Part shown: positions 1 to 21,185 of the stretch, piece by piece
How the letters are laid out: each line of letters starts with the position of its first letter
How positions within the stretch are numbered: the first letter of the stretch is position 1
NCBI GenBank assembly: GCA_964531275.1
Contig: CAZHDZ010000005.1
Location: 12,545 to 76,544, forward strand
Length of the DNA: 64,000 bases
Direction of reading: 5' to 3'
From: an uncultured Gammaproteobacteria bacterium
GTDB taxonomy: Bacteria; Patescibacteriota; Microgenomatia; Levybacterales; GWA1-39-11
The notes under the pieces: generated by a model
The model's input: the letters and a program-made list of their open reading frames with translations, nothing else
Databases searched by the model: none
What the model was told of the DNA's origin: nothing
Translations under genes and position numbers: made by a program

Positions 1-331
1 GATTTTGTCCAAAGAATGACGTTTCCGGGGTTTTGACTGTTACATTTGAAATGGCTGAAGGATTATAGGTAAGTTCTATTTGGGCACCTGCCGCAGGCTT
101 ACCTTGAGTATCTATCACTACATTTACTGATTGAGTACTGGGCCCCGTTGAAGCGTCAAGAGTAGACGGCTCGAAAGACATTGCCGCAAAGGGTTGAACT
201 TGGGTTGGTGTAGTTTCATTTGGGTCGTTTGATAATAGATTCTGGCCTTGATCAGATCTGACTGCTAAGAAGATAAGAATTCCTGTAATGATTGCAAGAA
301 TTACAATAAGTATGGTGGTTTTTTTTGGCAT
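1..331 (-). CDS. Partial (3' end off-window) membrane-anchored surface protein with cohesin-like beta-sandwich module
   Basis: Minus-strand ATG at 329-331 gives MPKKTTILIVILAIITGILIFLAV... (N-terminal TM anchor), then ...QSVNVVIDTQGKPAAGAQIELTYNP, resembling the '...LKYDP..V' modules in ORFs 356-2479 and 6464-7132. Runs off the window start. Not in the ORF track because it is incomplete. Confidence 0.4.
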   Translation of the reverse strand, partial: MPKKTTILIVILAIITGILIFLAVRSDQGQNLLSNDPNETTPTQVQPFAAMSFEPSTLDASTGPSTQSVNVVIDTQGKPAAGAQIELTYNPSAISNVTVKTPETSFFGQN

Positions 332-355
332 GTTAGGCAGTAGTATTTATATTAC

Positions 356-2479
356 TTAATCTCCATCTCGTAATGCAAACCCTCTTTGCAATATCTGAAC
401 GTCTATCTCATCGACCGATCCATTATCATTAAGATCTGCAAGCTCACGTATTGCAGTCGTGCATGCAGCTTCATTCTTAACGCAAGCAATCATATATGTC
501 CAGTCGATAATTCCAAGTGTATTATCGTTATTTAAGTCTCCGCTTATTAGGTTCCTTGGAGTTCCTGTCCATATGGTTGAAGCATTTGCTACGCCATTAT
601 TAATTTGCATAGATCCAATAAGTGTTCTGAAGAGAGTGTTATTAACTTTAATTTTTGCTGTATATACTCCTGTGGGGAAAGTTGTGCCCAATGGGAATTG
701 TCCAAAGTAGGAAGAGGACTGTGGGGTATAGGTCATTGTTGCATCAACAGTTTTAACATTGGTATTTGTATTGTCGTATAGCTTTAGCGTTGCGGTTCTT
801 TGTGGGTGTATCGGGGTTGCATTAAGTCCCAGATTTTCAGCCCCAGTGCCTATACCAGGAAGGATAATATTTACATTGATTGCTGTATCATTTGGTGCAA
901 GGGTGGCAGTAGGAACACTTGTTAAGGTAGGTTGTGCCGTTATGGTTGGCGCGGTTGTTATCGTAACAGATGGTGATGTTGCTGCGTTGGTTTTTGTGAC
1001 TACAGTTGATGCTACTGGCCCACCATATTTACCATCTGTCGCTCGTCGGCTATGAACCCAAATGAAATAATTTTTGCCTGGTTTGAATGTATATGTATAC
1101 TGTGTTGAGGTAACTGTTTCGCAAATATCTCCAGAAGTCGCATTCAAACTGTTGTTGCAAGTTCCTAGCGCACTCCAGGTTGTAGTATCTATTCCATCCT
1201 CATTAACTCTCAGATAGTAACCTCCCTCAGCTTTTGCTGAAGCTGTCCATGTTATATTTCGGCTTCCAGAATCTATATTGCCTGATGGTTGAAGATTGGC
1301 TGGCGGAATAATGGTCACGTCATAGTTGGGATTTGTTGAGATGGGTCCAACCAGCACCTCATATCCGTAAGTGCAAGTCTCACTGTATTTACCATTTTGA
1401 CCCTTAATTCTGAATTTAGGTCTATATGTACCATTAACAGTATAAATATGTTCTATGTAATCAAGTTGGACAGGAGAATCCCATGTTCCATTTCCATCAA
1501 AATCCCATTCATATCCTGCAATTCCTACTCCCAGTGCATTTGACTTTCCAGAACCATGTAAAGCTACTTTGAGTGGGGCAGCTCCTATCGTAGGTGGAAT
1601 AGTTGAAACTCCACATTCAGGAACTCTTGGTACAGGGGTTGTGCTAGGGGATACCGTTGGCGATGGAGTGACATATGCGCATTTAACGCAATTGTATGTG
1701 CCGTTACTGCCAGACACATCAGTACATGTTTTTCCTACATTGCTACCTAAATTAACATAGCAGGAATAAAGTCCTACAGTGCAGCCCACATGACTATTAT
1801 CTCCACAATATACTTGTGATCCAGTTGGTTGTTGGCTTACAGATGGAGAAGGGGAGGTTGTTACGCTTGGCGTTGTCGTCGTAGAGGTATTTGAGGTGAC
1901 AATAAAATTAGTCGCTTCAACTCCGGGTGTTATATCCGTGTACGATCCAGATTTTGTAACAGATGAGTTAATTGCTGTAATTGGAGTTGATCCAGCTGTT
2001 CCTTTAGATTTAAATATTAGACGACCAAGGTTGATATCTCCATTAAGAATAGTTGCGTCTGCCGTTGGCCGCAAGAAGGTGATGTTCATAGTGCCTGCTG
2101 CATTATTTGGAGAAGGGGTTTGAAGGGGGGTTAGGAGTGTAGATCTGTTGCCGTCTTCGTATCTCAAAAGCTCAACCTTATCCTGATCAAATTTTACAGT
2201 TGTTTGGATCGCTGTAATATTCACATTTGCTGCTGTGGTCCTAGCTTTTAGCTCGATCGCGGTTTCTGTCTGTAGCGCTACCTGTACCCGTAAAGGTGCA
2301 TATGAGAGTATAACTTCTTCCCCTGATGCACGTTGCCTCAAATCCTGGGATTGCCTTACTAAATATAATGTAGTAACTAGAGCTGCAGCAACAAATAAAG
2401 CTCCAATACCAAATACAATTTGCTTTCTAGTCAAATTTTTTATAAATTGCATAATAGGGTTAAGGGATTGTTGTTCCAT
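356..2479 (-). CDS. Large cell-surface protein: N-terminal TM anchor, cohesin-like module, S/T/P-rich linkers, Ig/PKD-like middle, C-terminal type-I dockerin (two DxNxDxxxxxxD Ca-binding loops)
   Basis: N-terminal hydrophobic segment IVFGIGALFVAAALVTTLYLV. C-terminal DLNNDNTLGIIDWTYM... and DLNDNGSVDEIDVQILQ match the dockerin Ca-loop spacing (D1,N3,D/N5,D9/12). Long TTTPSVTTSPSPS and PSPTVSPSTTPVP linkers. Confidence 0.7.
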   Translation of the reverse strand: MEQQSLNPIMQFIKNLTRKQIVFGIGALFVAAALVTTLYLVRQSQDLRQRASGEEVILSYAPLRVQVALQTETAIELKARTTAANVNITAIQTTVKFDQDKVELLRYEDGNRSTLLTPLQTPSPNNAAGTMNITFLRPTADATILNGDINLGRLIFKSKGTAGSTPITAINSSVTKSGSYTDITPGVEATNFIVTSNTSTTTTPSVTTSPSPSVSQQPTGSQVYCGDNSHVGCTVGLYSCYVNLGSNVGKTCTDVSGSNGTYNCVKCAYVTPSPTVSPSTTPVPRVPECGVSTIPPTIGAAPLKVALHGSGKSNALGVGIAGYEWDFDGNGTWDSPVQLDYIEHIYTVNGTYRPKFRIKGQNGKYSETCTYGYEVLVGPISTNPNYDVTIIPPANLQPSGNIDSGSRNITWTASAKAEGGYYLRVNEDGIDTTTWSALGTCNNSLNATSGDICETVTSTQYTYTFKPGKNYFIWVHSRRATDGKYGGPVASTVVTKTNAATSPSVTITTAPTITAQPTLTSVPTATLAPNDTAINVNIILPGIGTGAENLGLNATPIHPQRTATLKLYDNTNTNVKTVDATMTYTPQSSSYFGQFPLGTTFPTGVYTAKIKVNNTLFRTLIGSMQINNGVANASTIWTGTPRNLISGDLNNDNTLGIIDWTYMIACVKNEAACTTAIRELADLNDNGSVDEIDVQILQRGFALRDGD

Positions 2480-3338
2480 TTGTTACTGCTATAAAACTAT
2501 CTCTCCATCTATTGTAGTCTGAAATTGTTACATCTCCACCATTAAAATCAGCATATTTTGTTCTACCCTGAGTATTCCCTTCTTTTGCAATAAATTCATC
2601 GCGCCATAAATTAAAATCCTGAATTGTTATGGTTCCACTGCAATTTGCGTCACCTTTGTCCTTAAGTTGGGTATTTGAATTGGCGGTACCACCAGGGCAA
2701 GACCTTGCGGGTGCGACAGTCACAGATGGACTTGGCGTAGGCGATATTTGACATGTGCCGATAGTTTTTGGGTTTCCTCTGCGGTAGATATCTTCTACCC
2801 GATATGGTCCACCACAATATTGACTTGCACATTGATTGTTGTTAGATTGTTCGCAGCTGCATCCAATTGCCCGGCCACTCTGACTACTGCAACTAGTCGG
2901 CTGTGTGGCACTGGGCGCAACGCATTGACCGTTAATGCCTCCACTGTCTGTGAGTTCACATACACCTTCATTCACGCAACCGCCAAATATTGTACAACTT
3001 CCTCCATATTCAGATTTAGGACTGGTGTTCCCATTTGGACTACTATCGTTAACTGATTGACCAGCCGGGGGTAAATCATAGTTTTGTGTACTTTCGATTC
3101 CATGTTGGTATTTTCCTGTTGTGTCTTGATAACAATAAGCTTCACCTGCTGAGCAAGGTGATGAATTCTGTGTCCATATATAACTATCTGGCAGTTTGTC
3201 TGTACCTGGGATAAAAGCCAAAGTTTTATTCATGTCTATTTTAGAATTATCATTTGATGCATCTATTCGTAAATTAATAGGGATTATAAAAAAAAGGCTT
3301 ACAACGAGAAAGAAAATTCGAGGATTAATTTTTACCAT
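2460..3338 (-). CDS. Secreted cysteine-rich protein with C-terminal dockerin-like repeat pair
   Basis: N-terminal signal peptide (MVKINPRIFFLVVSLFFIIPINL). Many Cys (CSSQSGRAIGCSCEQSNNNQCASQYCGG). C-terminal DANCSGTITIQDFNLW and DFNGGDVTISDYNRW show dockerin-like D-x-N-x-(S/G)-x-x-x-x-x-x-D loops. Confidence 0.55.
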   Translation of the reverse strand: MVKINPRIFFLVVSLFFIIPINLRIDASNDNSKIDMNKTLAFIPGTDKLPDSYIWTQNSSPCSAGEAYCYQDTTGKYQHGIESTQNYDLPPAGQSVNDSSPNGNTSPKSEYGGSCTIFGGCVNEGVCELTDSGGINGQCVAPSATQPTSCSSQSGRAIGCSCEQSNNNQCASQYCGGPYRVEDIYRRGNPKTIGTCQISPTPSPSVTVAPARSCPGGTANSNTQLKDKGDANCSGTITIQDFNLWRDEFIAKEGNTQGRTKYADFNGGDVTISDYNRWRDSFIAVTNGTTIP

Positions 3339-3406
3339 AAACTATATAAAGCCAGTTATTTACATAGTAGAGAAGTTAGACTTGAGTGTCAATAAGAAGC
3401 GCATTT

Positions 3407-4723
3407 TTATGGAAGTGGGAATTCTTTAAGGGTTTTTTTAACTTCAAGCGCGATTGCTTTTATTTTTTTATTTTCTGCAATCTCTTTTTTAAAGTTTTTA
3501 AAAAATGGCCCGCGTTCTTCTTTGATTTCCGGTAACACATTCCCTTCACATTCTTTGATAATGTCTGTGATCCACTGACCCAGTACTTTCATCTCTTTTT
3601 CCTTCATGCCGCGTGTAGAGGCTCCTGGTGTTCCGATTCTAATACCAGAAGGGTAAAAGGGTGGAAGGGTATCATAGGGAATAGTATTCTTATTGGTAAT
3701 TATTCCGCCTAATTCTAGCGCGTAAGCAGCGAGTGCTCCATTGACCCCTTTTGACATGGTGTCTATTACAATTAGATGATTTTCGGTTCCACCAGTTGTT
3801 AATTTGAATCCATTTTTTTGAAGAACATCAGCAAGGGTTCTGGCATTTTTGACTATTTGATGAGCATATTTTTTAAATTCTGGAGTCTGTGCCTCTTTTA
3901 GAGCAACAGCGATTGCTGCTGTTTGGTTGTCATGAGGGCCACCTTGAAGTCCTGGAAATACCGCCTTATTTATCTTTTCTGGAAGATCTGGATCCTTTTG
4001 AATTCCTTTATCAGTTACCATAAGCATTGCACCACGCGGACCGCGGAGGGACTTATGTGTTGTTGTCATTATGATGTGAGCATGATTTGCAGGGGAAGGA
4101 TGGGCACCTCCCGCAATAAGACCTGCTATGTGGGATACATCAGCAAGCAGGTAAGCCCCGCACTTATCAGCAATCTTGCCAAATCTTTCAAAATCTATAA
4201 TTCTGGGATATGCAGTGAATCCACATACAATTATTTGTGGCTTTTCTTTCATTGCGAGCTTCTCAATTTCATCCATATCAAGGATTCCGTCGCGAGTTAC
4301 AGGAAAGCTTACGGTTTTGAAATACTTACCAGAGAAAGATACAGGAGACCCATGTGTAAGATGTCCTCCAGATGACAGAGCAAGTCCCATAATTTTGCTT
4401 TTTAGAGGTTCGAGTAGTGCAAAATATACTGCCGTATTTGCAGGACTTCCTGAATAAGGTTGGACATTTACAAAAGGAACGCCAAATACTTTTTTTGCAC
4501 GCTCAATAGCAAGCATTTCTATGTCATCCGCGTTGGCATTTCCCTGGTAATATCTTTTCTTTGAGTATCCTTCAGAATATTTATTAGTAAATACTGAGGC
4601 AAGAGTAGATCTTACTTCTAGGGAGGCGTAATTCTCTGAGGGAATAAGCGTTAGAGTGTCGCGTTGTCTTTTATCTTCTTTCTGGAGTATGGCATAAACT
4701 TCTGGATCTTCTTGGCTTAGCAT
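3407..4723 (-). CDS. glyA: Serine hydroxymethyltransferase
   Basis: Full-length SHMT pattern: LIPSENY, SEGY, GGHLTHG and the PLP-lysine motif TTTHKSLRGPRG. Confidence 0.92.
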   Translation of the reverse strand: MLSQEDPEVYAILQKEDKRQRDTLTLIPSENYASLEVRSTLASVFTNKYSEGYSKKRYYQGNANADDIEMLAIERAKKVFGVPFVNVQPYSGSPANTAVYFALLEPLKSKIMGLALSSGGHLTHGSPVSFSGKYFKTVSFPVTRDGILDMDEIEKLAMKEKPQIIVCGFTAYPRIIDFERFGKIADKCGAYLLADVSHIAGLIAGGAHPSPANHAHIIMTTTHKSLRGPRGAMLMVTDKGIQKDPDLPEKINKAVFPGLQGGPHDNQTAAIAVALKEAQTPEFKKYAHQIVKNARTLADVLQKNGFKLTTGGTENHLIVIDTMSKGVNGALAAYALELGGIITNKNTIPYDTLPPFYPSGIRIGTPGASTRGMKEKEMKVLGQWITDIIKECEGNVLPEIKEERGPFFKNFKKEIAENKKIKAIALEVKKTLKEFPLP

Positions 4724-4792
4724 CTTGATACAAAGAATAAATTAATGGGTCACTTTTGTCAATCTACTAACTTTTTTTGATACTATACATAT

Positions 4793-5383
4793 ATGGATCA
4801 TTTGATGGAAAAATTGGGGTGGAAGAAGATGGCTGTGATTATTGTTGTCGGGTGCTTAGGGCTTATGACATTTGCCTTGATGTCATTGCGAAATGCTGAT
4901 AGGAATAGCATTGTTAATAAAAACGATATAACTCCAGCCCCAACAAATTTAAAGCCAGGGATTGTGAAGACTGTGGAAGGCAACATTTCATCCCTTCAGT
5001 TCAATTCCTCGATCTTCTCAATTACCTATCCTGAAGGATTTCAGGTTGTGAATGTTGCCCCAAATGCTGGTGTTCAAGAATATATACGTTTTGTGAGTCC
5101 ATCAAAAAAAGAAATAAGTGTTGTTGTATTTCCCCGCCAAGAAAGATCACTTGAAGATCTTGCAGCCCCATATGAAGGTGCAGGTTATGAAGGTAGGGAA
5201 ATAATACAAAATGATATGACCGGTAAATATTTCATGGGCGAAAAACAGGCTCTTCGTCTTCGCGAAAAGGTCGCACTATTTCAGAAGGGGTATTCAATAA
5301 TAAGGCTGCAGTTGTCATATGCAGGGGAAAAAGATCCTATTATAGAGGCTCAGTATGACGCTATGCTAGCGAGTCTTGAATAA
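4793..5383 (+). CDS. Hypothetical membrane-anchored protein
   Basis: N-terminal TM (MAVIIVVGCLGLMTFALMSL). No recognisable domain. Confidence 0.45.
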   Translation: MDHLMEKLGWKKMAVIIVVGCLGLMTFALMSLRNADRNSIVNKNDITPAPTNLKPGIVKTVEGNISSLQFNSSIFSITYPEGFQVVNVAPNAGVQEYIRFVSPSKKEISVVVFPRQERSLEDLAAPYEGAGYEGREIIQNDMTGKYFMGEKQALRLREKVALFQKGYSIIRLQLSYAGEKDPIIEAQYDAMLASLE

Positions 5384-5403
5384 CCCTTCGATGCGCTCAG
5401 GGT

Positions 5404-6414
5404 TTAATTGCCGATTACCCCTCCCCACTCAACGGCGGTAAATCCGATTCTTTGAGGAGTTGGGGGAAGAGTTAACTCTTCATAATTTTCAGGAACATTC
5501 TCCAGAGGTTTGAAATATGCGATGAATTCAATAAATGTATCTGGTTTCGGTGAAATCAGAACTTGATCAAGCCGCTGCTTCTCATCTTTTTCTAAGATAG
5601 AGACAAACCAGTATGGGGAATCGTAAGCTGAAAGGCGGGGGAGCCACCAATCTAAGAATTCATCTTTTTCATCTTCTCGTGTTAGACCAAGTCTTTCTAT
5701 AAAATTCGTTAATTCTTCTTTGAGATTTTCTCTTTTAAAGATAAATCCTGCTTTCGGTTGTTTTACGTCTTTTGTCTCTGATTCGTAGAATAATTCACGA
5801 TACGGTTTGTCATTGTAAAAAAGAATACCATTAGGATGTGCCATAACATCGCTCCAGCCTTGGCTCGACTCAATATTGTTGTGGCGGCCATTTACCTCAA
5901 TTTGTGGATCGCTTATGACAACTTTACCTTCGGTAATTACTTTGACATCTACTAGAGTAGGAGTTGTAGGGTAGAGATAAATCACTGGTTTCCCTATGCA
6001 GTACCAGCCATCGCCTTCTCTAGCAAGAGTTCTGCACCAGCCAGAATTGTTAAAGTCAGCGCAAACAGCATCTTTGGTTCCTGGCATAGATGATTTAGAT
6101 TGGTCAAAATCGGTACATTGACTATCTTTGCAGTACACAAGATATGCAATGCAATTTGTGCATACATTCGGGTCAACCTTTTTGGACATGTCATGATTGC
6201 ATGCGTCTCCTACTGGGGTCGGTTTTGGTTGGAAAGTGAGCTTTTTTAATTGAAGATTTTTTTTCTGCGAGTCACCAGATGTAATCGGGCTTTCGTATTT
6301 TTCATTTGGATTTGTGGTTGAGATGTTGAACATCTTGCCGCTTGTAATGAGGAATGCAAAAGCAGTAACAAGAATAAGGACCGGAATGACAATGTTAATG
6401 TAACCTTTACTCAT
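5404..6414 (-). CDS. Hypothetical membrane-anchored extracellular protein (Cys-rich N-terminal part)
   Basis: N-terminal TM (INIVIPVLILVTAFAFLI). CNHDM..CTNCIAYLVYCKDSQC cysteine cluster. No family recognised. Confidence 0.45.
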   Translation of the reverse strand: MSKGYINIVIPVLILVTAFAFLITSGKMFNISTTNPNEKYESPITSGDSQKKNLQLKKLTFQPKPTPVGDACNHDMSKKVDPNVCTNCIAYLVYCKDSQCTDFDQSKSSMPGTKDAVCADFNNSGWCRTLAREGDGWYCIGKPVIYLYPTTPTLVDVKVITEGKVVISDPQIEVNGRHNNIESSQGWSDVMAHPNGILFYNDKPYRELFYESETKDVKQPKAGFIFKRENLKEELTNFIERLGLTREDEKDEFLDWWLPRLSAYDSPYWFVSILEKDEKQRLDQVLISPKPDTFIEFIAYFKPLENVPENYEELTLPPTPQRIGFTAVEWGGVIGN

Positions 6415-6463
6415 ATCTATAAGTATGCCACAAAATAGATATAGAGTTCATTAAAAATGAGGA

Positions 6464-7132
6464 CTATGGAGTAATTATTACGTCAAGATCACCTCTAGAA
6501 GGTTTTAGCTTTTTTTGCTGACCGCCCTCTATAGTGTAGAGTTCTGAGAGTTTGAGATCATAGGAAAGTGTTGCTTTGCTTGATTGTTTGTTGGCCGTTG
6601 GGGTAAAGGTTATTGTTGCAAATCTGCCAGAGCCTACAACAGGCGTTGATCCTTCAGGGAGTGAAAAGGAAATAACTACATTCCCAGGATTGTATTTTAC
6701 AGTAGAAAAGAATGCATTCGGGACTATGGAGGTGGTGCCTGTTATTGTTTTTACTTGGACATCACTGACTGTATAAGGGTCATACTTTAATACTACTTTT
6801 CCACCCGAAATACCTGTGGATGTTAGTGTTTGGAGATTTAAGTCAACGGTTGTAGGCGTTGCATTGATTGCGGTTAGGTTATATGTTGAAAAGCCTAATG
6901 ATACTTGTATATTTAACGGATTGCCAAGTTTTTCTGCGCTAGGTGCTATTGTCCCTTTCTTTACTGATACTGATTTGAGCATAAAGAAAGTAGCTATGAT
7001 GATAACTAAGAGTATCCCTATCGCCCCAAGAGAGATTAGTAATTTTTTCTTTCCAGACTTTTTGACTTGTTCTGGAGGTATTTGGGTTGTGGGCAGTTGT
7101 TCTTCCATATAATTTAGTAGGGATTCTGGCAT
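6464..7132 (-). CDS. Membrane-anchored protein with cohesin-like module
   Basis: TM anchor (LLISLGAIGILLVIIIATFFML), then LTAINATPTTVDLNLQ...VVLKYDPYTVSDVQV...GRFATITFTPTAN, which resembles the cohesin-like module of ORF 356-2479. Confidence 0.45.
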   Translation of the reverse strand: MPESLLNYMEEQLPTTQIPPEQVKKSGKKKLLISLGAIGILLVIIIATFFMLKSVSVKKGTIAPSAEKLGNPLNIQVSLGFSTYNLTAINATPTTVDLNLQTLTSTGISGGKVVLKYDPYTVSDVQVKTITGTTSIVPNAFFSTVKYNPGNVVISFSLPEGSTPVVGSGRFATITFTPTANKQSSKATLSYDLKLSELYTIEGGQQKKLKPSRGDLDVIITP

Positions 7133-8868
7133 GTGCCTGTTGTGCCGGTCCCTACGCAGAACCCTCCACAGCCGCTACATGCGATATTACTTCCAGCATT
7201 GGGTCCGGACATATTATTTGCGCTTGGGTTGCATGGCCTACCTGGTAGATTACAAGACCCACCAGCGGGGGGGGCACCTTGCGGAAGCTGACAGCAAAGT
7301 GCTTTGTCAGTATTGTAAAACGCTTTACATGCATCATTTCCTCCAGAATTTAGTACCTCACTTCCCATACAGGTATCTACATTGGCTCTGCAAACCTGAT
7401 GGATATTTGATGCAGGGATGTAGTCATTGCAAGTGCTACCCGTTGATACTGGTGTTACTGTGGCGGTTGGTCCGGTTGCGGCGGTTGGAGTAGGAGTTGC
7501 TTCCGGAGTTTTGCATGTATTATCTCTCCACTCAGTGCCTGCAGGGCAGCATCGACCTTGACTTCCAGACACGATGCATACATTTGGTACTGCACACTGC
7601 CATGGGCCCTGTACTGGATTGCATAGGCCGCCTTGAGCTGTAGGCACAAATGGAGTAGGGGTAACAGTTGTTACGGGTGTTACTGTTGGGCTAGGTGATG
7701 TAGATCCTCCGCCTGTTCCTGGGGCACATATGTAGAAATATCTTTGTTGTGGGTATTTCCAATCGCAGTAATCATCGTATCCGGAAGGATCATTGGGTCT
7801 TTTTCTTTCTTGCCAGAGCAAGTTGTTGGTAGCGGTTGTCTGAGACGTAGCACATGAGGCAGTTCCTTGAGGTTGTAATGTGGTGTAGGTTGGGACGGAG
7901 TCACCGCAGTAGCCGTTCCCTGGAGGGGTTGGAGTTGGAGTGCTGCTGCCTGCGCCATTATCGGGACCAAGAGGACTCCCACCTGTCTTTTTGCAACACG
8001 TTCCGCCCTTGCTGCCGCAACTAAAATAAGTGGTTTTTGGTTGGGGAGAATTATAGGTTGAATTACAGGATGGTAGGCACATATACAATTCTTCATTTGG
8101 GCCTGTAAGCTCACAGTGATTATAGGTTGATTCTAGGCATCTGCCGGATGATCTACTGCAGCTTCCTGAATCACACACAGCATCTTGGTATATCGTAGTT
8201 CCTCCCGGTTTGAAGGCACAGATGCTTCCGGGTGTAAGACTTCCATGTGTTGCACAGGATCCCTTGCCGACACCGACTCCCTCTGGTTGCACACAAGATT
8301 GAGATGAGCTGCAGTAAATACCAGCCCCGCAAAACTTGTCGGTTGATCCCAGGCTTACACACTTTCCGGTTGTTCTGCTACAAGTTCCAGTTCCGCAAGC
8401 TGCGTCTCTATAAAAGGTAGTGCCTCCAGGTTTGGAAACGCAGACAGCATCAATACCCAGACTTCCATTTGTAACACATTCGCCTTGACCTACGCCTGCA
8501 CCAGCAGGTTGTACGCAGGATTCTGAGGTACTGCAGTAAATACCAGCCCCGCAAAACTTGTCAGCTGAACCTAGCTCTACGCATCTACCCGTTGATCTAC
8601 TACAAGAGCCGGAAATACAAGCTGCGTCTCCATAAAAAGTAGTGCTTCCAGGCTTGAAAGAGCAAACATCGCCTGTATTGAGGGTTCCATTCGCAGCGCA
8701 TGATCCTTTACCTACACCTGCACCAGCTGGTTGAACGCAAGTTTGAGTTGAGGTACAGGTTATACCAGCTCCACAATTTTGGTCAGCGAAGCTTTGATTT
8801 ACATTTACAATACCGAAGGTAAAAATGAGTATAAGAGAAGCCAATGTAAGAATAAATAATTTCATCAT
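7114..8868 (-). CDS. Secreted cysteine-rich protein with three tandem ~75-aa repeats
   Basis: Signal peptide MMKLFILTLASLILIFTFGIVNV. Repeat FCGAGIYCS(T/S)S(E/Q)SCVQP(A/E)G(A/V)GVG(Q/K)G.C...G...C..KPGGTT.Y.DA.C.SG.CSR..G.C occurs three times, plus a Cys- and Thr/Pro-rich C-terminal half. DNA copies are diverged except for a ~30-nt identical core at about 8313-8343 and 8533-8562. Confidence 0.6.
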   Translation of the reverse strand: MMKLFILTLASLILIFTFGIVNVNQSFADQNCGAGITCTSTQTCVQPAGAGVGKGSCAANGTLNTGDVCSFKPGSTTFYGDAACISGSCSRSTGRCVELGSADKFCGAGIYCSTSESCVQPAGAGVGQGECVTNGSLGIDAVCVSKPGGTTFYRDAACGTGTCSRTTGKCVSLGSTDKFCGAGIYCSSSQSCVQPEGVGVGKGSCATHGSLTPGSICAFKPGGTTIYQDAVCDSGSCSRSSGRCLESTYNHCELTGPNEELYMCLPSCNSTYNSPQPKTTYFSCGSKGGTCCKKTGGSPLGPDNGAGSSTPTPTPPGNGYCGDSVPTYTTLQPQGTASCATSQTTATNNLLWQERKRPNDPSGYDDYCDWKYPQQRYFYICAPGTGGGSTSPSPTVTPVTTVTPTPFVPTAQGGLCNPVQGPWQCAVPNVCIVSGSQGRCCPAGTEWRDNTCKTPEATPTPTAATGPTATVTPVSTGSTCNDYIPASNIHQVCRANVDTCMGSEVLNSGGNDACKAFYNTDKALCCQLPQGAPPAGGSCNLPGRPCNPSANNMSGPNAGSNIACSGCGGFCVGTGTTGTCQNPY

Positions 8869-8903
8869 TAATTTACTTTATAAGTACTAAGTACCATTGT
8901 CAA

Positions 8904-9494
8904 TTAATTGCATCCCGTAGGGTCTCCGTCTTTTGTGGTCTGTATATCTCCGCCTCTCCAGCCTCCCTCTCCTTGTATCCCACCAGAATATAAAGATATT
9001 TTCCAGGTTTTATCGTTAAATCCATATTCATTACTCAAGGCTAGTGGGAATTTACCCTCTGGGGATGTAAATTTTTGAGTGGACAGTGTTTTTAAGCCAT
9101 TATCGTTAATTTCCAACTTGATATATCCATCTTTAGTGCCCTTAACATTTACAAAACCGTCTTTATAAGAAGATTTTCCACTTTTGCAGGTAGGAGTAAT
9201 ATCAAAACTTAGACTCCAGGAGTTGGTTGTTGGAGAAGTTGTTGGAGAGGTCGTAGTAGCGGGACTGGTAGTAGGGGAAGCAGAGCCAGCACTGGCAGGT
9301 GCTGATGGGGTGATGGTTACCGGTGAGGCTTCATTTCCTGAAGATAAAGACTCAACGCCACCTACAAACATGACAGCAAAGATGACAACCATAATGATAA
9401 TCACTATATATATGGAAGACTGACCGGATTGGTTGTCAGTGGCTGGTGGTTGGTGGTTGGAGAAGGAAATGTTTTTGAAAGTATTTTTAAACAT
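8904..9494 (-). CDS. Hypothetical membrane-anchored protein with S/T/P linker
   Basis: TM (IYIVIIIMVVIFAVMFVGGV) followed by PTTSPATTTSPTTSPTT linker and a globular C-terminus. Confidence 0.45.
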   Translation of the reverse strand: MFKNTFKNISFSNHQPPATDNQSGQSSIYIVIIIMVVIFAVMFVGGVESLSSGNEASPVTITPSAPASAGSASPTTSPATTTSPTTSPTTNSWSLSFDITPTCKSGKSSYKDGFVNVKGTKDGYIKLEINDNGLKTLSTQKFTSPEGKFPLALSNEYGFNDKTWKISLYSGGIQGEGGWRGGDIQTTKDGDPTGCN

Positions 9495-9534
9495 ATTTTA
9501 TTTTAGCTCTAATTACTAATCACTATCCACCAGC

Positions 9535-10434
9535 TTATGGTGTTGGTGTTGGAGTTGAAGCTCCAGTGCATAGTCTACTCGTAATCGTTGAAAGGAGTCT
9601 TTTGACGTCATCTGCTGATTCGGCCGCATAATAATTCTCTGGTTTGCTTGCGATGCTTCTCAGCAAAGTCTCCATTTGAAAAACATATTGACGCTCGTCA
9701 GGTGAGAAGATGCCTAGGCTAAAAACATCCACACCAAGTGCTTTGATTTGGTCTGCTGGATTCGGGCTATATATTCTAGGGTCTTGATCAGCTCCTACAT
9801 TGCCAGGACAGGCAAAACCAGGGCATGGGCCACCATCAGAGATAAATATAAAAGTAAATTTTCGGTCAGCTGGAAATTTTGGAATAGATTCTTTTAAGTG
9901 GTTGTAGGAAAAGGTAAGTGCTTCATAAGTGGGAGTTGAGGATCTTCCTCCAATTGCATCAACTTTTGCCATAATGGTAGATTTAGTATCCCTGTAATAA
10001 GCAATAGGCACATCATTTGTAATACTTCCTGTCGTGAAAGATTGGATGCCAATTATTGAATCATCTTGCGTAGTGCCAATAAGTTCTTTAATAGCCTCTT
10101 TAAGGCGGGCAAGTTTGGAAACCTTAGAGCTAGTTAGTAGATTCATAGAGTCGGACTTGTCTACAAGGAAATCAACTGTTAGTGTGCTTGCGCATTCCTT
10201 GAATTTGATTGTTTTGAGTTGTAGGCCTTTTTGTTCGGGGTCAGGAGGTTCTGGAATAACTTCAAGGTCTCCTGTTGGTCCGGGATCTGAGTACATATTT
10301 TTTGGAGCAACACCTCGAGCGAGGAGTAGTCCCATGCCAATTGCAACTGTGATAAAACCAATAGTGAATATCGTACCTGGGCCGGTAAGACTTACGGTAA
10401 ATCCATACCCACCACGACGCTTATTCTTAGCCAT
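9535..10434 (-). CDS. von Willebrand factor type A (vWA) domain protein, membrane-anchored
   Basis: TM anchor, then the MIDAS motif DKSDSM, ...TPTYEAL..., ...FIFISDGGP. Ends in a TPTPTP tail. Confidence 0.7.
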   Translation of the reverse strand: MAKNKRRGGYGFTVSLTGPGTIFTIGFITVAIGMGLLLARGVAPKNMYSDPGPTGDLEVIPEPPDPEQKGLQLKTIKFKECASTLTVDFLVDKSDSMNLLTSSKVSKLARLKEAIKELIGTTQDDSIIGIQSFTTGSITNDVPIAYYRDTKSTIMAKVDAIGGRSSTPTYEALTFSYNHLKESIPKFPADRKFTFIFISDGGPCPGFACPGNVGADQDPRIYSPNPADQIKALGVDVFSLGIFSPDERQYVFQMETLLRSIASKPENYYAAESADDVKRLLSTITSRLCTGASTPTPTP

Positions 10435-10455
10435 AAATCATTGTAGTCACAGAGA

Positions 10456-10488
10456 ATGACTTGCGTCAATTTCTGAGTAGGGTTTAGC
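10456..10488 (-). promoter_or_regulatory. Sigma70-like promoter (TTGACG-N18-TACAAT) 5 nt upstream of the vWA-gene ATG, suggesting a leaderless or near-leaderless transcript; two CTAAACCC motifs lie just upstream
   Basis: The minus-strand sequence reads ctaaaccctagaccc..ctaaaccctactcagaaaTTGACGcaagtcattctctgtgacTACAATgatttATG. Coordinates are approximate. Confidence 0.4.
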
Positions 10489-10523
10489 TGTAAAAGGGTC
10501 TAGGGTTTAGATATACTAGAATT

Positions 10524-10892
10524 GTGAAATTAAATTCCTACAAAGACTTGATAGTTTGGCAAAAATCGATGGATTTGGCACGCCAAGTATATCTACTATC
10601 AAAATCTTTTCCAAAAGAAGAAACCTATGGATTAACTTCACAAATAAGACGTGCTGCTGTTTCGATACCTTCAAATATTGCCGAAGGCTATGCAAGGAAA
10701 TCCGTAAAAGAGTATTTACAGTTTTATTCCATTGCTTATGGTTCAACCTTAGAGCTTCAGACCCAATTGATGCTTTGCCATGACTTTAAGTACATCAGTG
10801 ATGGTAACTATAGGAATCTTGAATCTTTAATTGAAGAAGTTTCAAAAATGCTCCATTCTTTAATTTTAAAACTAAACACTAAACCCTCTTGA
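10524..10892 (+). CDS. Four-helix-bundle protein (23S rRNA intervening-sequence-protein family)
   Basis: Family pattern: ...YKDLIVWQKSMDLARQVY...FPKEE.YGLTSQIRRAAVSIPSNIAEGYAR.S.KEY.QF..IA.GS..ELQTQL. Confidence 0.75.
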   Translation: MKLNSYKDLIVWQKSMDLARQVYLLSKSFPKEETYGLTSQIRRAAVSIPSNIAEGYARKSVKEYLQFYSIAYGSTLELQTQLMLCHDFKYISDGNYRNLESLIEEVSKMLHSLILKLNTKPS

Positions 10893-10917
10893 ACTACACG
10901 CTCATTTGGGCTATAAT
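10889..10917 (+). promoter_or_regulatory. Sigma70-type promoter TTGAAC-N17-TATAAT for the rpsB operon, with a ~100-nt leader
   Basis: ttgaac at 10889-10894 and tataat at 10912-10917, an exact 17-bp spacer. Preceded by ctaaacactaaaccct. A GC-rich leader follows with a small hairpin (gtct atcc agac). Confidence 0.5.
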
Positions 10918-11018
10918 AGCTTTCATATCAACATGCTCTGGATTACTTCCTGGCTGAAAACGCCCCCAGATGCAGAGGTGAGCCGTCTATCCAGACGAGC
11001 CGCAAAAGGAATAAAAAA

Positions 11019-11792
11019 ATGAAACAAATTACACTAGAAGAATTATTAGAAGCTGGATGTCATTTTGGGCATCAAGTTAATAGAAGAAATCCAAAAGCTA
11101 ACCGCTATATTTTTGAAGCTCGTGGCGGAGTAAATATTATCAATCTTGAAGCAACTCAGGAAGGGATTATGGCCGCTGCTGAGTATGTAAGGGAATTGGG
11201 ACAAAAGGGTGGAAGCATGGTTGTTGTAGGTACAAAAAGACAAGCTCAGGCAATCGTTAAAGAAGAAGTAGAAAGAGCTCGAGAAGTAACCCCAGATACA
11301 ATACATTACATTATTTCTCGTTGGATTGGTGGAATTTTTACTAATTTTGAAGAGGTAAAGAAGAATTTTAAAAAACTTGTTGACCTTGAAAAGATTGTCA
11401 CCTCAGAAGACCGTGGTGGATATACAAAAAGAGAGGTTGGAATTTTTGAAAAAGAACTTATCAAGCTTAAAGATATCTATGGAGGACTTTTTACTATCAA
11501 GCAGGCACCTGATGCTGTATTTATAATTGATACTCACGGAGAAAACACTGCAGTAAGAGAAGCATCTCGCGTTGGCCTTAAAACAATCGGAATTACCGAC
11601 ACAAACGCAGATCCGTCTGAAGTTGATTTCTCAATTCCTGCAAATGATGATGCAGTAGGGTCTATAAAATTGATAACATCGTATTTGATAGATGCTTGGA
11701 TTGAAGGATCTAAGGAAAAAACAAAAGCAGATAACAAAGCAGCTGAGAAATTAGCTGAGGAGACAAGAAAAGCGAAGGTAGGAGATAAATAA
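11019..11792 (+). CDS. rpsB: 30S ribosomal protein S2
   Basis: LLEAGCHFGHQVNRRNPKANRYIF... is canonical S2. Confidence 0.95.
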   Translation: MKQITLEELLEAGCHFGHQVNRRNPKANRYIFEARGGVNIINLEATQEGIMAAAEYVRELGQKGGSMVVVGTKRQAQAIVKEEVERAREVTPDTIHYIISRWIGGIFTNFEEVKKNFKKLVDLEKIVTSEDRGGYTKREVGIFEKELIKLKDIYGGLFTIKQAPDAVFIIDTHGENTAVREASRVGLKTIGITDTNADPSEVDFSIPANDDAVGSIKLITSYLIDAWIEGSKEKTKADNKAAEKLAEETRKAKVGDK

Positions 11793-11881
11793 GCGTTTAG
11801 ATGAAGAAGCGTATAGCGTTTAGTTATAATACATTAACTAAGACCCTAAACCCTAAAAACTAAACCCTTGAACTATAAACT

Positions 11882-12334
11882 ATGGCAATTTCAGCACAAC
11901 AAATCAAAGAACTAAGAGAAAAGACTCAAGCAGGTTTTGCAGACTGCAAAATGGCTCTTGATGAGGCGAAGGGAGATATGAAAAAGGCAGAAGATATTCT
12001 TCGAAAGAAGGGTTTTGAAAAAGCTGCGAAAAAGTCAGATCGCGAGACAGGTCAAGGACTCGTAGAGAGTTATGTTCATCAGACTGGTAAAGTCGGTGTT
12101 CTTGTATCCATACTTTGCGAAACAGATTTTGTTGCAAGAACAGACGAATTCAAGCATTTAGCTCATGAAGTAGCCATGCAAATTGCTGCTATGAATCCAA
12201 AAGATATAGACATTCTTCTTAAGCAGGAATACATCAGAGATGGTTCTAGGACCATCAATGATTTAGTAACCGAAGCAATCGCTAAGCTTGGGGAAAATAT
12301 AAAAATAAGCGAATTCAAACGCTCCGAAATTTAA
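11882..12334 (+). CDS. tsf: Elongation factor Ts, short 150-aa form
   Basis: IKELREKTQAGFADCKMAL (UBA-like N-terminus) and VGVLVSILCETDFVARTDEF. It has only one core subdomain, as in small-genome lineages. Confidence 0.9.
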   Translation: MAISAQQIKELREKTQAGFADCKMALDEAKGDMKKAEDILRKKGFEKAAKKSDRETGQGLVESYVHQTGKVGVLVSILCETDFVARTDEFKHLAHEVAMQIAAMNPKDIDILLKQEYIRDGSRTINDLVTEAIAKLGENIKISEFKRSEI

Positions 12335-12840: not shown

Positions 12841-13953
12841 ATGTTACTGACAGTCATCTCCTTTATAATCATTCTCTCAATTCTTGTATTGATCCATGAA
12901 TTGGGTCATTACTTAGTTGCAAAGAAATTTGGAATCAAGGTGGAAGAGTTTGGTGTGGGATTTCCTCCGCGTGCTTTCGGCAAAAAGATCGGCGAGACAG
13001 TGTATTCAGTTAATTGGTTACCTATAGGTGGATTTGTGAAGCTATATGGTGAAGACAACGCAGGGGGTGGAAAAGTATCCCAATCCTCATCCACCAATCA
13101 CCAATCACCAGACACTGATATTAAGAGAGCGTTTTATGCACGACCTTTATGGCAGCGAATGGCTGTTGTGACAGCGGGGGTAATTATGAATTTCCTCCTT
13201 GCTGTAGTTCTTATTTCCTTCTTATTTTCAACTCAAGGAGTTCCTTTGCCATCAAGTGATGTTATCGTTTCAGGTATTTCTAAAAATTCTCCAGCGTCTG
13301 ATGCAGGGCTTCGGGTTGAGGATAGAATCTTAAAAATCAATGACAAAGCAATTAGTAAGACTGATGTATTTATTTCAGAGACCAAGAAAAATGCCGGTCA
13401 GGAAATACAGCTTTTAGTAAGAAGGGACGGAAAAGAATTTACAACAAGTCTAACTCCACGAATTAATCCTCCAAAAAATGAGGGGGCAATGGGAGTTAGT
13501 ATCACAAATATTATTGTTAAAAAATACACCTGGTATGAAGCACCTGTTTACGGAACTATTGAAGCCGGAAAATTCTCATGGCTAATCCTTTCAGGACTTG
13601 GCGGAATGGTAAGTGATCTAGTGCATGGAGGTGTAAAGCCTGAGAGCGTTGCAGGACCTATTGGAGTGGCCCAATTGACCGGGGAGGCAGTGCGGGCAGG
13701 ATGGTTTGCAGTTCTTTGGTTTGTTGCTTTGCTATCTCTTAATCTTGCAGTTCTTAATATCATGCCTATTCCTGCTCTTGATGGAGGTAGATTTTTCTTT
13801 ATGATAATCGAGCTTGTTACTCGACGAAAAGTTAGTCAGAAATATGAAGGATATGCTCACGCAGTGGGTCTGGTTGCTCTTCTCGGACTTATGCTTCTTA
13901 TAACGCTATTAGATCTTTCAAGACTCGTTCAGGGAAAGAGTATTCTTCCTTGA
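12841..13953 (+). CDS. rseP: RIP metalloprotease RseP (site-2 protease, M50) with PDZ domain
   Basis: HELGHYLVAKKFG (HExxH inside a TM helix), a central PDZ-like segment, and C-terminal LNLAVLNIMPIPALDGG. Confidence 0.85.
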   Translation: MLLTVISFIIILSILVLIHELGHYLVAKKFGIKVEEFGVGFPPRAFGKKIGETVYSVNWLPIGGFVKLYGEDNAGGGKVSQSSSTNHQSPDTDIKRAFYARPLWQRMAVVTAGVIMNFLLAVVLISFLFSTQGVPLPSSDVIVSGISKNSPASDAGLRVEDRILKINDKAISKTDVFISETKKNAGQEIQLLVRRDGKEFTTSLTPRINPPKNEGAMGVSITNIIVKKYTWYEAPVYGTIEAGKFSWLILSGLGGMVSDLVHGGVKPESVAGPIGVAQLTGEAVRAGWFAVLWFVALLSLNLAVLNIMPIPALDGGRFFFMIIELVTRRKVSQKYEGYAHAVGLVALLGLMLLITLLDLSRLVQGKSILP

Positions 13954-13991: not shown

Positions 13992-14555
13992 ATGGACAGC
14001 CAAATTCAACAACAGACAAGATCCAATATGGAGAAAGCCTTCTCTGTACTGAAAGAAGATTTTGGGACAGTTAAGACTGGGAAGGCAAACCCACAATTAG
14101 TGGAAAATATAGTAATTAATGCGTATGGAGGTACAGCGAAACTAAAGGTACTTGAGCTCGCAACCATTCATGTGCAAGATCACCAGACAATTCTTATTAC
14201 TCCTTTTGATTCATCAGTATTACGTGATATTGAAAAAGGAATTTCAGATAGCCAGATGGGTCTAGGTATTGCTGTAGACGGAACTAATATTCGTGTAAGT
14301 ATTCCACCGTTAACCCAGGAACGACGTGAGGAATTCGTTAAGCTTATTCATAAGAAGGCTGAAAATGGAAAAATAATGATCAGGCAAGCACGACAGGAGT
14401 CAAATGAAGTGATTGGAAAAGCTGAAAAAGATGGAGAAATTTCAGAAGATGATGAGAAAAGGATGGAAAAAGAAGTTCAGAAAATTACTGATGAATACAT
14501 CGCAAAAATAGAAGAGGCTTCAAAGTTGAAAGAGCAGGAACTGATGACAGTCTAA
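13992..14555 (+). CDS. frr: Ribosome recycling factor
   Basis: MDSQ...MEKAFSVLKEDFGTVKTGKANPQLVENIVINAYGG aligns with the E. coli RRF N-terminus, and the C-terminal ISEDDEKRMEKEVQKITDEYIAKIE matches too. The track ORF starts at 13950, but the homologous start is the ATG at 13992. Confidence 0.9.
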   Translation: MDSQIQQQTRSNMEKAFSVLKEDFGTVKTGKANPQLVENIVINAYGGTAKLKVLELATIHVQDHQTILITPFDSSVLRDIEKGISDSQMGLGIAVDGTNIRVSIPPLTQERREEFVKLIHKKAENGKIMIRQARQESNEVIGKAEKDGEISEDDEKRMEKEVQKITDEYIAKIEEASKLKEQELMTV

Positions 14556-14658
14556 ATAAAGCGTTTAGTAAAAAGCGTATAGCGTTCAGGGTTTAGTTTT
14601 TAAATTTTCTTCAACTAAGTACTGCTGCTAACCCCTAATTTTCTAAACCCTAAGTAAT

Positions 14659-15267
14659 ATGAAGATTCCCAGAGCGTTAGAACAAGTTATTGAAGGATTC
14701 GAACGGCTACCCGGTATTGGGCCTAAGTCGGCTCAACGTCTTGGCTTTTATCTTTTGCATGTTCCTCAAAGTGATTTGGATGATTTTGCTTACGCTCTCA
14801 CAAATCTTAAGAAAAATACCAAGATGTGTACTATTTGTTTTAATATAGGTACAACTGATGTTTGTGATGTATGCAGTGATTCCGAGCGCGACACAACTAC
14901 AATTTGTCTTGTAGAAGACGCTTTAGATGTAATAGCATTTGAAAAATCAGATAAATTTAAAGGTGTATATCATGTACTTCATGGAGTAATCGATCCATTA
15001 AATTCAATTGGTCCTGACGACATATATATTCCTCAATTACTCACAAGATTGAAGAATCAAAAGGGTGTTGTTGAAGAAATAATTATTGCTACAAATCCAA
15101 CAATGGAGGGGGAAGCAACTGCAATGTATTTAGTGAAGCAATTGAAGTCGCAATATCCAGAACTTACTATCTCAAGAATTGGAAGAGGGCTGCCAGTAGG
15201 TGCGGATATAGAATATGCTGATGAAGTAACTCTTACGCGAGCCCTCGAAGGAAGAAGCGAGTATTGA
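14659..15267 (+). CDS. recR: Recombination protein RecR
   Basis: HhH (LPGIGPKSAQRL), C4 zinc finger (CTICFNIGTTDVCDVC), Toprim domain. Confidence 0.9.
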   Translation: MKIPRALEQVIEGFERLPGIGPKSAQRLGFYLLHVPQSDLDDFAYALTNLKKNTKMCTICFNIGTTDVCDVCSDSERDTTTICLVEDALDVIAFEKSDKFKGVYHVLHGVIDPLNSIGPDDIYIPQLLTRLKNQKGVVEEIIIATNPTMEGEATAMYLVKQLKSQYPELTISRIGRGLPVGADIEYADEVTLTRALEGRSEY

Positions 15268-15273
15268 GGATGC

Positions 15274-15394
15274 GGGTCCTGCCATGTCTCACTCCCCATT
15301 TACTAAAATATTCACCCACTCTACAAATATAGGAATAGTTGTTCGCTTGTGAAATTTTTTCAATGGGACCCTTTCGACATGTCACCCGTGGGGT
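15274..15394 (+). repeat. Intergenic element copy A (family of at least three homologous elements directly after + strand stop codons)
   Basis: gggtcctgccatgtctcactccccatt...cactctac...tcaatgggaccc..cat..cccgtgggg. Homologous to 22776-22896 and 45514-45575. Confidence 0.55.
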
Positions 15395-15406
15395 ATGTAT
15401 GAAAGC

Positions 15407-19898: not shown

Positions 19899-19912
19899 GA
19901 CGTAATACATCT

Positions 19913-21103: not shown

Positions 21104-21175
21104 TTGAGGTTGGCTTTATAGCATTTATGATAAAAGCCAAATCCAATTGATATCTTCATTTGAGGTTGGCTTTAT
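21074..21175. repeat. Perfect 46-bp tandem duplication (21074-21119 and 21130-21175, 10-bp spacer) spanning the divergent 5' ends of two genes
   Basis: ataaaagccaaatccaattgatatcttcatttgaggttggctttat occurs twice. Copy 1 contains the minus-strand ATG of the DUF1704 gene. Copy 2 contains the TTG at 21147 listed by the ORF track as the start of ORF 21147-22769. Confidence 0.85.
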
Positions 21176-21185
21176 TGCATTCGCC

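Follow-up and report, generated by a model that had tools for sequence, protein, structure and literature searches.

A candidate non-cellulosomal cohesin-dockerin system for surface display in an uncultured bacterium of the Levybacterales

In cellulosomes, scaffoldins of the CipA type are attached to cell-bound cohesins through an X-dockerin (X-Doc) dyad. Here we describe a block of ten genes at positions 1-10434 of a 64,000-nucleotide (nt) stretch of contig CAZHDZ010000005.1 (GenBank assembly GCA_964531275.1, positions 12,545 to 76,544; hereafter the window), from an uncultured bacterium placed by GTDB in the Patescibacteriota (Levybacterales, GWA1-39-11). The block encodes cohesin and dockerin modules, and we read it, with a probability of about 0.6, as a non-cellulosomal, two-tier system of cohesins and dockerins for protein display at the cell surface. 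The closest described arrangements are the anchoring of CipA in Clostridium (Acetivibrio) thermocellum (SdbA, OlpB, Orf2p; PDB 2B59, 3KCP, 4FL4), the type I pairs (CipA Coh2/Xyn10B Doc, 1OHZ/2CCL; CaCohA2, 6KGC; OlpC, 4DH2), and the non-cellulosomal modules of Archaeoglobus fulgidus (2XDH) and Clostridium perfringens (2JH2, 2W1N).

As cited in PMC10066038 and PMC8542988, the survey of Peer et al. (2009) describes non-cellulosomal modules as few per genome, occurring without plant-cell-wall enzymes, and presumably assembling surface or toxin complexes. Insofar as that survey is cited there, the present block belongs with these modules, although organisms and architectures differ. Two further cases were drawn, like ours, from metagenome-assembled genomes. 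Candidatus Stygibacter (Cloacimonadota; PMC8542988) has a predicted surface system with a 3,755-aa (amino acid) multi-cohesin scaffoldin bearing carbohydrate-binding modules (CBMs) and with dockerin-tagged GH18, GH57, and peptidases, and the Omnitrophota (PMC10066038) encode dockerin-rich giant proteins whose dockerins are proposed to be adhesins of host-dependent nanobacteria. Unlike in Stygibacter, each cohesin protein here carries a single cohesin and the cargo of the locus is non-catalytic. A full-text search of the accessible literature found no description of such a system in the candidate phyla radiation (CPR)/Patescibacteria, nor of single-cohesin membrane anchors, a Cys-containing X-Doc family, or the QDxRQRA motif reported below.

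Nine of the ten genes in the block, all except glyA, encode a single N-terminal hydrophobic segment in a Kyte-Doolittle scan, compared with 10 of 59 open reading frames elsewhere in the window (Fisher p = 1.4e-5). An earlier note on this DNA, made from the sequence alone, had listed the same reading frames, all of which are real, and had made the same claim for nine of them. In total, the block holds three cohesin modules, a canonical dockerin, and a dockerin-like module that is divergent; every protein that carries them has an N-terminal segment for export or anchoring. By sequence, and for one cohesin also by predicted fold, the modules belong to the cohesin and dockerin families. Against the curated Pfam cut-offs (Cohesin, PF00963, 24.1 bits; Dockerin_1, PF00404, 22.9; VWA, PF00092, 23.8), Cohesin is exceeded by the 222-aa and 707-aa proteins and by a full-length orthologue of the protein truncated at the window start, in agreement with the three cohesin-like modules of the earlier note. 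The note had taken these for one shared module, which holds for the 222-aa and truncated proteins (hhalign 92%, E 5e-7) and not for the 707-aa cohesin, which is no close relative and joins the others through the Pfam profile only. No further cohesin or dockerin was found among 20 other window proteins with Pfam, and the 707-aa protein holds the only strict double Ca-loop pattern of the window.

The two small cohesin proteins are the candidate base of the system. The product of the truncated gene begins MPKKTT, has a hydrophobic segment within aa 1-29, and is 78-80% identical to orthologues of 194-198 aa in nine related loci (L001-L009). The 110-aa fragment alone has no Pfam match, and the full-length L001 orthologue (80% identical) scores 36.1 bits against Cohesin. 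The 222-aa protein scores 34.6 bits, with its cohesin module at aa 95-211 (nt 6500-6850) and a hydrophobic anchor inside aa 27-59. Structure prediction, a check that the earlier note had proposed, recovered the cohesin fold for this module: the AlphaFold2 (AF2) model, built on an alignment of seven orthologues, is all-beta with no helix (predicted local distance difference test score, pLDDT, 86.5; predicted template-modelling score, pTM, 0.81), and ranks 1-40 of a Foldseek search against the PDB are all cohesins (best 6kgc_A, E 1.6e-9, TM 0.69/0.77). Type I cohesins come first (CaCohA2 6kgc_A, then OlpC, ScaC, and CipA; E 1.6e-9 to 5e-7, TM ~0.6-0.77), and the non-cellulosomal 2xdh and 2jh2 are among the matches. 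Sequence identity to the type I cohesins is only 14-19%, and the context here is non-enzymatic. In both small proteins, basic residues precede the hydrophobic segment and no AxA-type cleavage site follows it, features by which they look like N-in/C-out signal anchors.

The 707-aa protein combines both module types. From its N-terminus it consists of a signal or anchor segment, the motif QDLRQRA, a cohesin, a Cys-rich module, a PKD domain, beta-rich spacers with Pro/Thr (P/T) linkers, an Ig-like module with a weak FlgD_ig match, and a dockerin. A dockerin is expected to have two tandem segments of ~22 residues, each with a 12-residue loop (D1, N/D3, D/N/S5, D/E12) followed by a helix. The loops of the 707-aa protein, DLNNDNTLGIID at aa 648-659 and DLNDNGSVDEID at aa 682-693, fit the EF-hand-like patterns DxNxDxxxxxxD and DxNxNxxxDxxD, respectively, and are duplicated as in the type I pairs; the two segments are asymmetric. 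Matches in the PDB are 2b59_B (E 1.4e-3) and 2ccl_B (E 0.01). Because the protein pairs one cohesin with a C-terminal dockerin unit most like the type II X-Doc dyads, its sequence is better read as that of an adaptor scaffoldin than of a plain anchor. The earlier note had proposed anchoring through membrane-spanning cohesin proteins, which suits the two small proteins with signal-anchor features better than the 707-aa protein.

The Ig-like module and dockerin (aa 517-707) define a large family. An exhaustive search with this dyad as query returned at least 1,604 cluster representatives (clusters at 50% identity) at E <= 1e-3, 864 of them at E <= 1e-10. The matched region almost always forms the very end of the protein, behind N-terminal parts that differ widely. 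Members share a terminal RxGD and, between the Ca loops, two invariant Cys. By profile comparison, the family is closest to the type II X-dockerin dyads: an 80-member profile best matches the X-Doc of CipA (2b59_B, E 3.1e-10; 3kcp_A, 4.7e-10), followed by 4wi0_B and 4u3s_B of A. cellulolyticus (~1e-7), compared with only ~5e-4 for type I dockerins, and its alignment to 2b59_B, 3kcp_A, and 4wi0_B covers the last strands of the X module together with the dockerin. Weak FlgD_ig matches were found in 27 of the 80 members. Pfam domains in these 80 are Dockerin_1 (46), SdrD_B (10), Cohesin (9, or up to 15 as detectable by Pfam), FlgD_ig (7), vWA (6), CarboxypepD_reg (6), and CBM_4_9 (4), with single occurrences of sulfatase, M64 peptidase, pectate-lyase-like, lectin, and CAP domains; one member (P0005) is an S8 peptidase bearing the same dyad. 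Judged by these annotations, the cargo of the family appears mostly adhesin-like, with few enzymes.

The resemblance to CipA anchoring lies in a scaffoldin-type protein that joins a cohesin to an Ig-like/dockerin dyad, alongside separate cell-bound cohesin proteins. In contrast to CipA, the 707-aa protein has one cohesin rather than nine and lacks a CBM3; the locus encodes no enzyme with a dockerin tag; its base cohesins are N-terminally membrane-anchored rather than held by S-layer homology (SLH) repeats, and the modelled one is more type I-like; and the dockerin carries two conserved Cys between its loops.

In the model that we favor, the two small cohesin proteins would insert as signal anchors, each presenting one cohesin just outside the membrane as a base socket. 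The 707-aa protein would be a one-socket adaptor, a CipA in miniature, whose Ig-like/dockerin dyad makes a Ca2+-dependent contact with a base cohesin, the likeliest partner being the product of the immediately downstream gene, the truncated one. We propose this contact because the small cohesin gene is adjacent to the 707-aa gene (a gap of 24 nt), an adjacency kept even in the more distant L011, and, by analogy, because the X-Doc dyad has this fastening role in cellulosomes. A stalk of ~450 aa, made of PKD, beta-sandwich, and P/T-linker parts, would carry the N-terminal cohesin of the adaptor away from the membrane. Secreted proteins with a dockerin tag would then be caught either by this distal cohesin or by the second base cohesin; these would be the 292-aa Cys-rich protein and, as the relatives suggest, two proteins encoded just left of the window, one of 679 aa with a double dockerin and one of 441 aa. 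The vWA protein, with its metal-ion-dependent adhesion site (MIDAS), the 584-aa Cys-rich protein, and three anchored proteins without an assigned family would be co-located surface components without docking modules. Since the cargo appears adhesin-like rather than catalytic, the output would likely be an adhesive or protective surface layer.

Within the locus, the pairing of dockerins with cohesins is what we infer from gene adjacency and conserved synteny. The gene order is shared by eight related contigs (L001-L008) and three GTDB records (L009-L011), and reads rpsB-tsf, a four-helix-bundle gene, the vWA gene, a 196-aa gene, the Cys-rich gene, a cohesin gene, the 336-aa gene, a second 196-aa gene on the opposite strand, glyA, the dockerin gene, the cohesin-plus-dockerin gene, and the small cohesin gene. 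Retention of the cohesin and dockerin genes in related loci, another check that the earlier note had suggested, was confirmed. Left of the window, the relatives encode a protein with a CAP domain, a 708-aa protein that contains a paralogue of the 336-aa domain, a double-dockerin protein of 666-679 aa, and a 441-aa dockerin protein; the Dockerin_1 genes on this side lie 7-9 kb further on. The window thus cuts off the left part of the system. A comparable trio of adjacent genes occurs in an unrelated organism (L090, 6985-11369, on a contig with CODH/ACS genes), where one gene encodes a cohesin protein of 387 aa that is membrane-anchored at its C-terminus, another an 843-aa protein with cadherin-like, cohesin, dockerin, and four PKD modules, and the third a cohesin protein of 182 aa with one dockerin-like half-site at its end.

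These data also bear on an alternative in which the folds are genuine and the modules do not pair with one another, acting instead as spacers or Ca2+-stabilized units, or binding partners that are encoded elsewhere or sit on other cells, so that the block would simply be a cluster of fast-evolving surface proteins. The surface genes do diverge far faster than the adjoining housekeeping genes, and the window counts three cohesins to two dockerins. Set against this are the presence of both module types in one small locus, the spacing of cohesin and dockerin genes (24 nt apart or overlapping) that is conserved across relatives, and the similar clustering of the trio in L090. We consider an absence of mutual pairing unlikely.

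Several observations nevertheless weigh against the two-tier system. A metagenome scan with alignment A8 returned nothing and one with alignment A9 returned nine loci, and at seven distant X-Doc loci none of 35 secreted neighbors has a Pfam Cohesin match, so cohesin-dockerin gene linkage is shown at about genus level only; these distant X-Doc genes without a nearby cohesin gene also favor an absence of pairing. As Peer et al. (2009) are cited in PMC10066038 and PMC8542988, non-cellulosomal cohesins and dockerins are often unequal in number, with partners that are not known. Type II cohesins (1qzn, 5k39_A, 4wi0_A) rank only 36-39 for the 222-aa model, below type I, and the analogy to X-Doc and type II pairs is incomplete because the modelled base cohesin is closer to type I; the type II hallmark is an extra helix with beta-flaps, and this model has no helix. 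The AF2 model of the full 707-aa protein, from five sequences, reached a pLDDT of 36.5, too poor to judge its fold or any docking within the molecule, and the helix seen after each Ca loop comes from this low-confidence model. If the N-terminus of the 707-aa protein is an uncleaved anchor, the geometry of the adaptor is altered.

The tail of the 292-aa protein adds to these points. The earlier note had read two dockerin tails, and both sets of quoted loops are present, with Dockerin_1 passing in the 707-aa protein. In the 292-aa protein, loop 1 (DANCSGTITIQD) fits the EF-hand-like pattern in full, loop 2 (DFNGGDVTISD) lacks one residue, and Dockerin_1, the sole family match, scores 11.3 bits for the whole protein and 15.7 for the module alone, below the cut-off; a phmmer search of the PDB with the tail found no dockerin. 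Against an alignment of 11 dockerins from the locus, hhalign nevertheless gives 97.6% (E 2.7e-12) with both loops and helices aligned. The tail is most like the C-terminal dockerin of the 679-aa neighbor, which itself scores 20.3 bits, and the helix residues of its segments are near-identical (IQD-FNLWRDEFIA and ISD-YNRWRDSFIA). In type I dockerins, such segment symmetry underlies dual binding modes. On this comparison the tail is a probable divergent dockerin. Orthologues of 370 aa have, directly before the divergent tail, an 81-aa insert with a canonical dockerin (Pfam 39.7 bits), which is absent from the window, L001, and L002 and is thus a presence/absence polymorphism. The Dockerin_1 match of the 370-aa orthologues was rejected as support for the window tail because it stems from this insert, which the window gene lacks.

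The dyad family raises a different geometry, in which subunits would join head to tail into a fiber, each inserting its dockerin into its neighbor's cohesin and so giving non-covalent, pilus-like heteropolymers with the small membrane cohesins as base. The 707-aa protein does hold a cohesin and an X-Doc in one polypeptide, an N-terminal domain common to 82 dyad members is homologous to its cohesin (hhalign 95%, E 4e-8), and the variable middle domains are adhesin-like. This homology came from profile-profile comparison only, as an iterative hidden Markov model search seeded with the 707-aa cohesin found no family members. Most dyad members lack a Pfam-detectable cohesin, however, and the dockerin of characterized adaptor scaffoldins is not known to bind their own cohesins, so that we regard fibers of this kind as improbable.

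Many members of the family also share an N-terminal signature, a basic stretch followed by ~20 hydrophobic residues and Q(Q)QDxRQRA, which was found in 89 of the 149 best dyad-family matches. In the window, QDxRQRA occurs in the 707-aa protein only; in related loci it is found in the CAP, 127-aa, 679-aa, and 441-aa secreted proteins (in L001 at 12843-13226, 14367-15407, 19441-21480, and 21483-22094). No Pfam or NCBIfam model covers this signature, which may serve as a signal for sorting or cleavage that is particular to the lineage. A bolder reading takes the QDxRQRA segment, the N-terminal cohesin, and the two-Cys dyad of hundreds of proteins as a widespread, undescribed assembly system that polymerizes into non-covalent fibers of mixed subunits. 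We think this rather doubtful; if true, such fibers, with a sorting signal of their own, would be the cohesin-dockerin counterpart of pili assembled by sortases and would serve attachment between cells or to a host.

Cellulosomes are the best-known setting of cohesin-dockerin systems, and some distant X-Doc members or their neighbors carry CBM_4_9, GH5, pectate-lyase-like, or sulfatase domains; a minimal cellulosome, organizing polysaccharide-degrading enzymes on the cell surface, was therefore considered. The distant X-Doc loci encode S8 peptidases, GH5, a nuclease, beta-helix proteins, and lectin/CBM domains, and the dyad family thus also displays some enzymes. Neither the window nor the 22-kb related loci hold a dockerin-bearing carbohydrate-active enzyme (CAZyme) or a CBM-bearing scaffoldin, and no cohesin or dockerin protein in the window or in L001-L009 carries a CAZyme or CBM domain, with one cohesin per cohesin protein. 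The GH15 and GH63-like proteins of the window lack signal peptides and dockerins. Because there is no dockerin-tagged CAZyme or CBM, this highly improbable explanation was rejected, and the view of the earlier note that no glycoside hydrolase here carries a dockerin and that the complex does not degrade cellulose stands, across the whole window and for CBMs as well as hydrolases: neither dockerin-tagged CAZymes nor a CBM-bearing multi-cohesin scaffoldin is present.

Returning to the two-tier display system, divergence between relatives is uneven along the locus (features in Table 1). Housekeeping genes are 94-97% identical (glyA 95-97%), the vWA protein 89%, the 707-aa protein 83-91% (homologues at 91% and 83%), the small cohesins 78-80% and 59-62%, and the plus-strand 196-aa protein ~70%; the linker-bearing 196-aa protein is the fastest-evolving of the block at 44-46%, and the repeat part of the 584-aa protein is not alignable to its orthologues. 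Set into this background, a 2,536-bp tract (1402-3937) is 100% identical to L001 and L002 (sources ENA ERZ27275549 k141_186160 and Logan SRR5278607), with sharp edges and flanks at ~80%. It takes in the first ~360 codons of the 707-aa gene, all of the 292-aa gene, and the 3' part of glyA, and reflects either recent recombination between species-level relatives in a surface locus or a double assembly chimera.

Table 1. Coordinates of the genes and modules of the cohesin-dockerin block (positions in the window unless a related locus is named)
Feature	Position (nt)	Strand	Basis or remark
Truncated small cohesin gene	1..331	-	First 110 codons; rest of gene past window start
707-aa one-cohesin adaptor-type protein	356..2479	-	Pfam Cohesin + Dockerin_1
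707-aa protein, Ig-like module + dockerin, X-Doc-like dyad (aa 517-707)	359..931	-	
707-aa protein, dockerin (aa 647-699)	383-541	-	Dockerin_1 26.2 bits; two conserved Cys between loops
707-aa protein, PKD-like domain (aa 297-368)	1376..1591	-	PKD_4 22.8 bits, under cut-off; ColH PKD 4jgu_A, E 3.8e-5
707-aa protein, divergent cohesin module (aa 81-185)	1925..2239	-	Pfam Cohesin 27.8 bits
707-aa protein, N-terminal hydrophobic segment (aa 19-43) + QDLRQRA (aa 45-51)	2327..2425	-	
292-aa secreted Cys-rich protein (14 Cys), divergent dockerin-like C-terminus	2460..3338	-	
292-aa protein, dockerin-like tail (aa 228-285)	2484-2657	-	
Dockerin insert comparison	2484-2700		vs L003 1937-3049, L009 8905-10017, L010 1-1005
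glyA, serine hydroxymethyltransferase (SHMT)	3407..4723	-	Housekeeping
196-aa membrane-anchored protein, no family	4793..5383	+	Hydropathy; conserved position
336-aa membrane-anchored or secreted protein, 8 Cys, no family	5404..6414	-	
222-aa membrane-anchored single-cohesin protein	6464..7132	-	Pfam Cohesin, AF2, Foldseek
584-aa secreted Cys-rich protein (52 Cys)	7114..8868	-	
196-aa membrane-anchored protein, P/T/S-rich linker, no family	8904..9494	-	
299-aa membrane-anchored vWA protein	9535..10434	-	Pfam VWA

Of the remaining genes in the block, glyA is probably a passenger outside the system, since it has its own promoter-like site (4762-4734) and promoter-like sites also precede neighboring genes; consensus sites lie upstream of glyA and of the 292-aa, 584-aa, and vWA genes. 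The vWA call of the earlier note is borne out by a VWA score of 37.9 bits (domain at aa 89-280, nt 9595-10170) and by DKSDS, in the translation, as the DxSxS MIDAS motif. The note had described the other proteins of the block as vWA and Cys-rich tandem-repeat proteins, which fits the vWA protein and the 584-aa protein, with its three tandem repeats of 74 aa and 8 Cys each (aa 30-249, nt 8122-8781) followed by Cys-rich modules between P/T linkers, and does not fit the 336-aa protein or either 196-aa protein. It had also placed dockerin-bearing Cys-rich proteins on top of the complex; no docking module was found in the 584-aa or the vWA protein, and the dockerin-like tail of the 292-aa protein is divergent. 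The vWA and 584-aa proteins may be mere neighbors in a surface-protein locus. The 336-aa and 584-aa proteins match nothing in the PDB, Pfam, or NCBIfam, and the plus-strand 196-aa protein has a weak PsbP-like match, under the cut-off.

Beyond the block, the adjoining four-helix-bundle gene (10524-10892, plus strand) encodes a "23S rRNA intervening sequence protein"/bAvd-like protein (TIGR02436, 138 bits). A diversity-generating retroelement was considered here and rejected: the DGR-Avd score is under the cut-off, no template/variable repeat pair occurs in 1-12000, and no reverse transcriptase gene was noticed beside the bAvd-like gene. Elsewhere, a 320-aa protein (56500-57462, plus strand, in a stretch of 51% GC) has a signal peptide, a small Cys-containing domain, a P/T-rich linker of ~110 aa, and a C-terminus of PSAGTG, a hydrophobic segment, and RRSKR that is like a sortase-type (LPXTG-like) sorting signal; its gene adjoins an L,D-transpeptidase (YkuD) gene at 57531-57977. 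In a stretch of 48% GC, a 774-aa protein (15407-17731, minus strand) is Ala/Pro/Thr-rich, acidic, and of low complexity, with an internal duplication of ~60 aa, no hydrophobic segment, and no Pfam match.

The window holds no rRNA or tRNA gene. Its EF-Ts gene (tsf, 11882-12334, plus strand) encodes just 150 aa, matching positions 2-140 of the 293-position TIGR00116 model, and a 153-aa gene without assignment lies between tsf and an M50 protease gene. Relatives of this bacterium come from wastewater (PMC9405806). The short EF-Ts and the wastewater origin fit a small-genome uncultured lineage, and prove nothing.

If the proposed pairing is true, the cohesin-dockerin plug-and-socket would be a general surface-display device in small-genome uncultured bacteria, with cargo that is adhesin-like (PKD, Ig-like, vWA, lectin-type) rather than cellulases. 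With at least 1,604 clusters in the dyad family, this would therefore concern a sizeable share of the surface proteome of the lineage. Rapid divergence, gain and loss of dockerins, and the identical tract of ~2.5 kb form the pattern expected of molecules that face hosts, phages, or competitors, and host attachment is a reasonable guess at the purpose of the complex. The small single-cohesin anchors and their dockerins would also be new orthogonal pairs for synthetic protein assembly.

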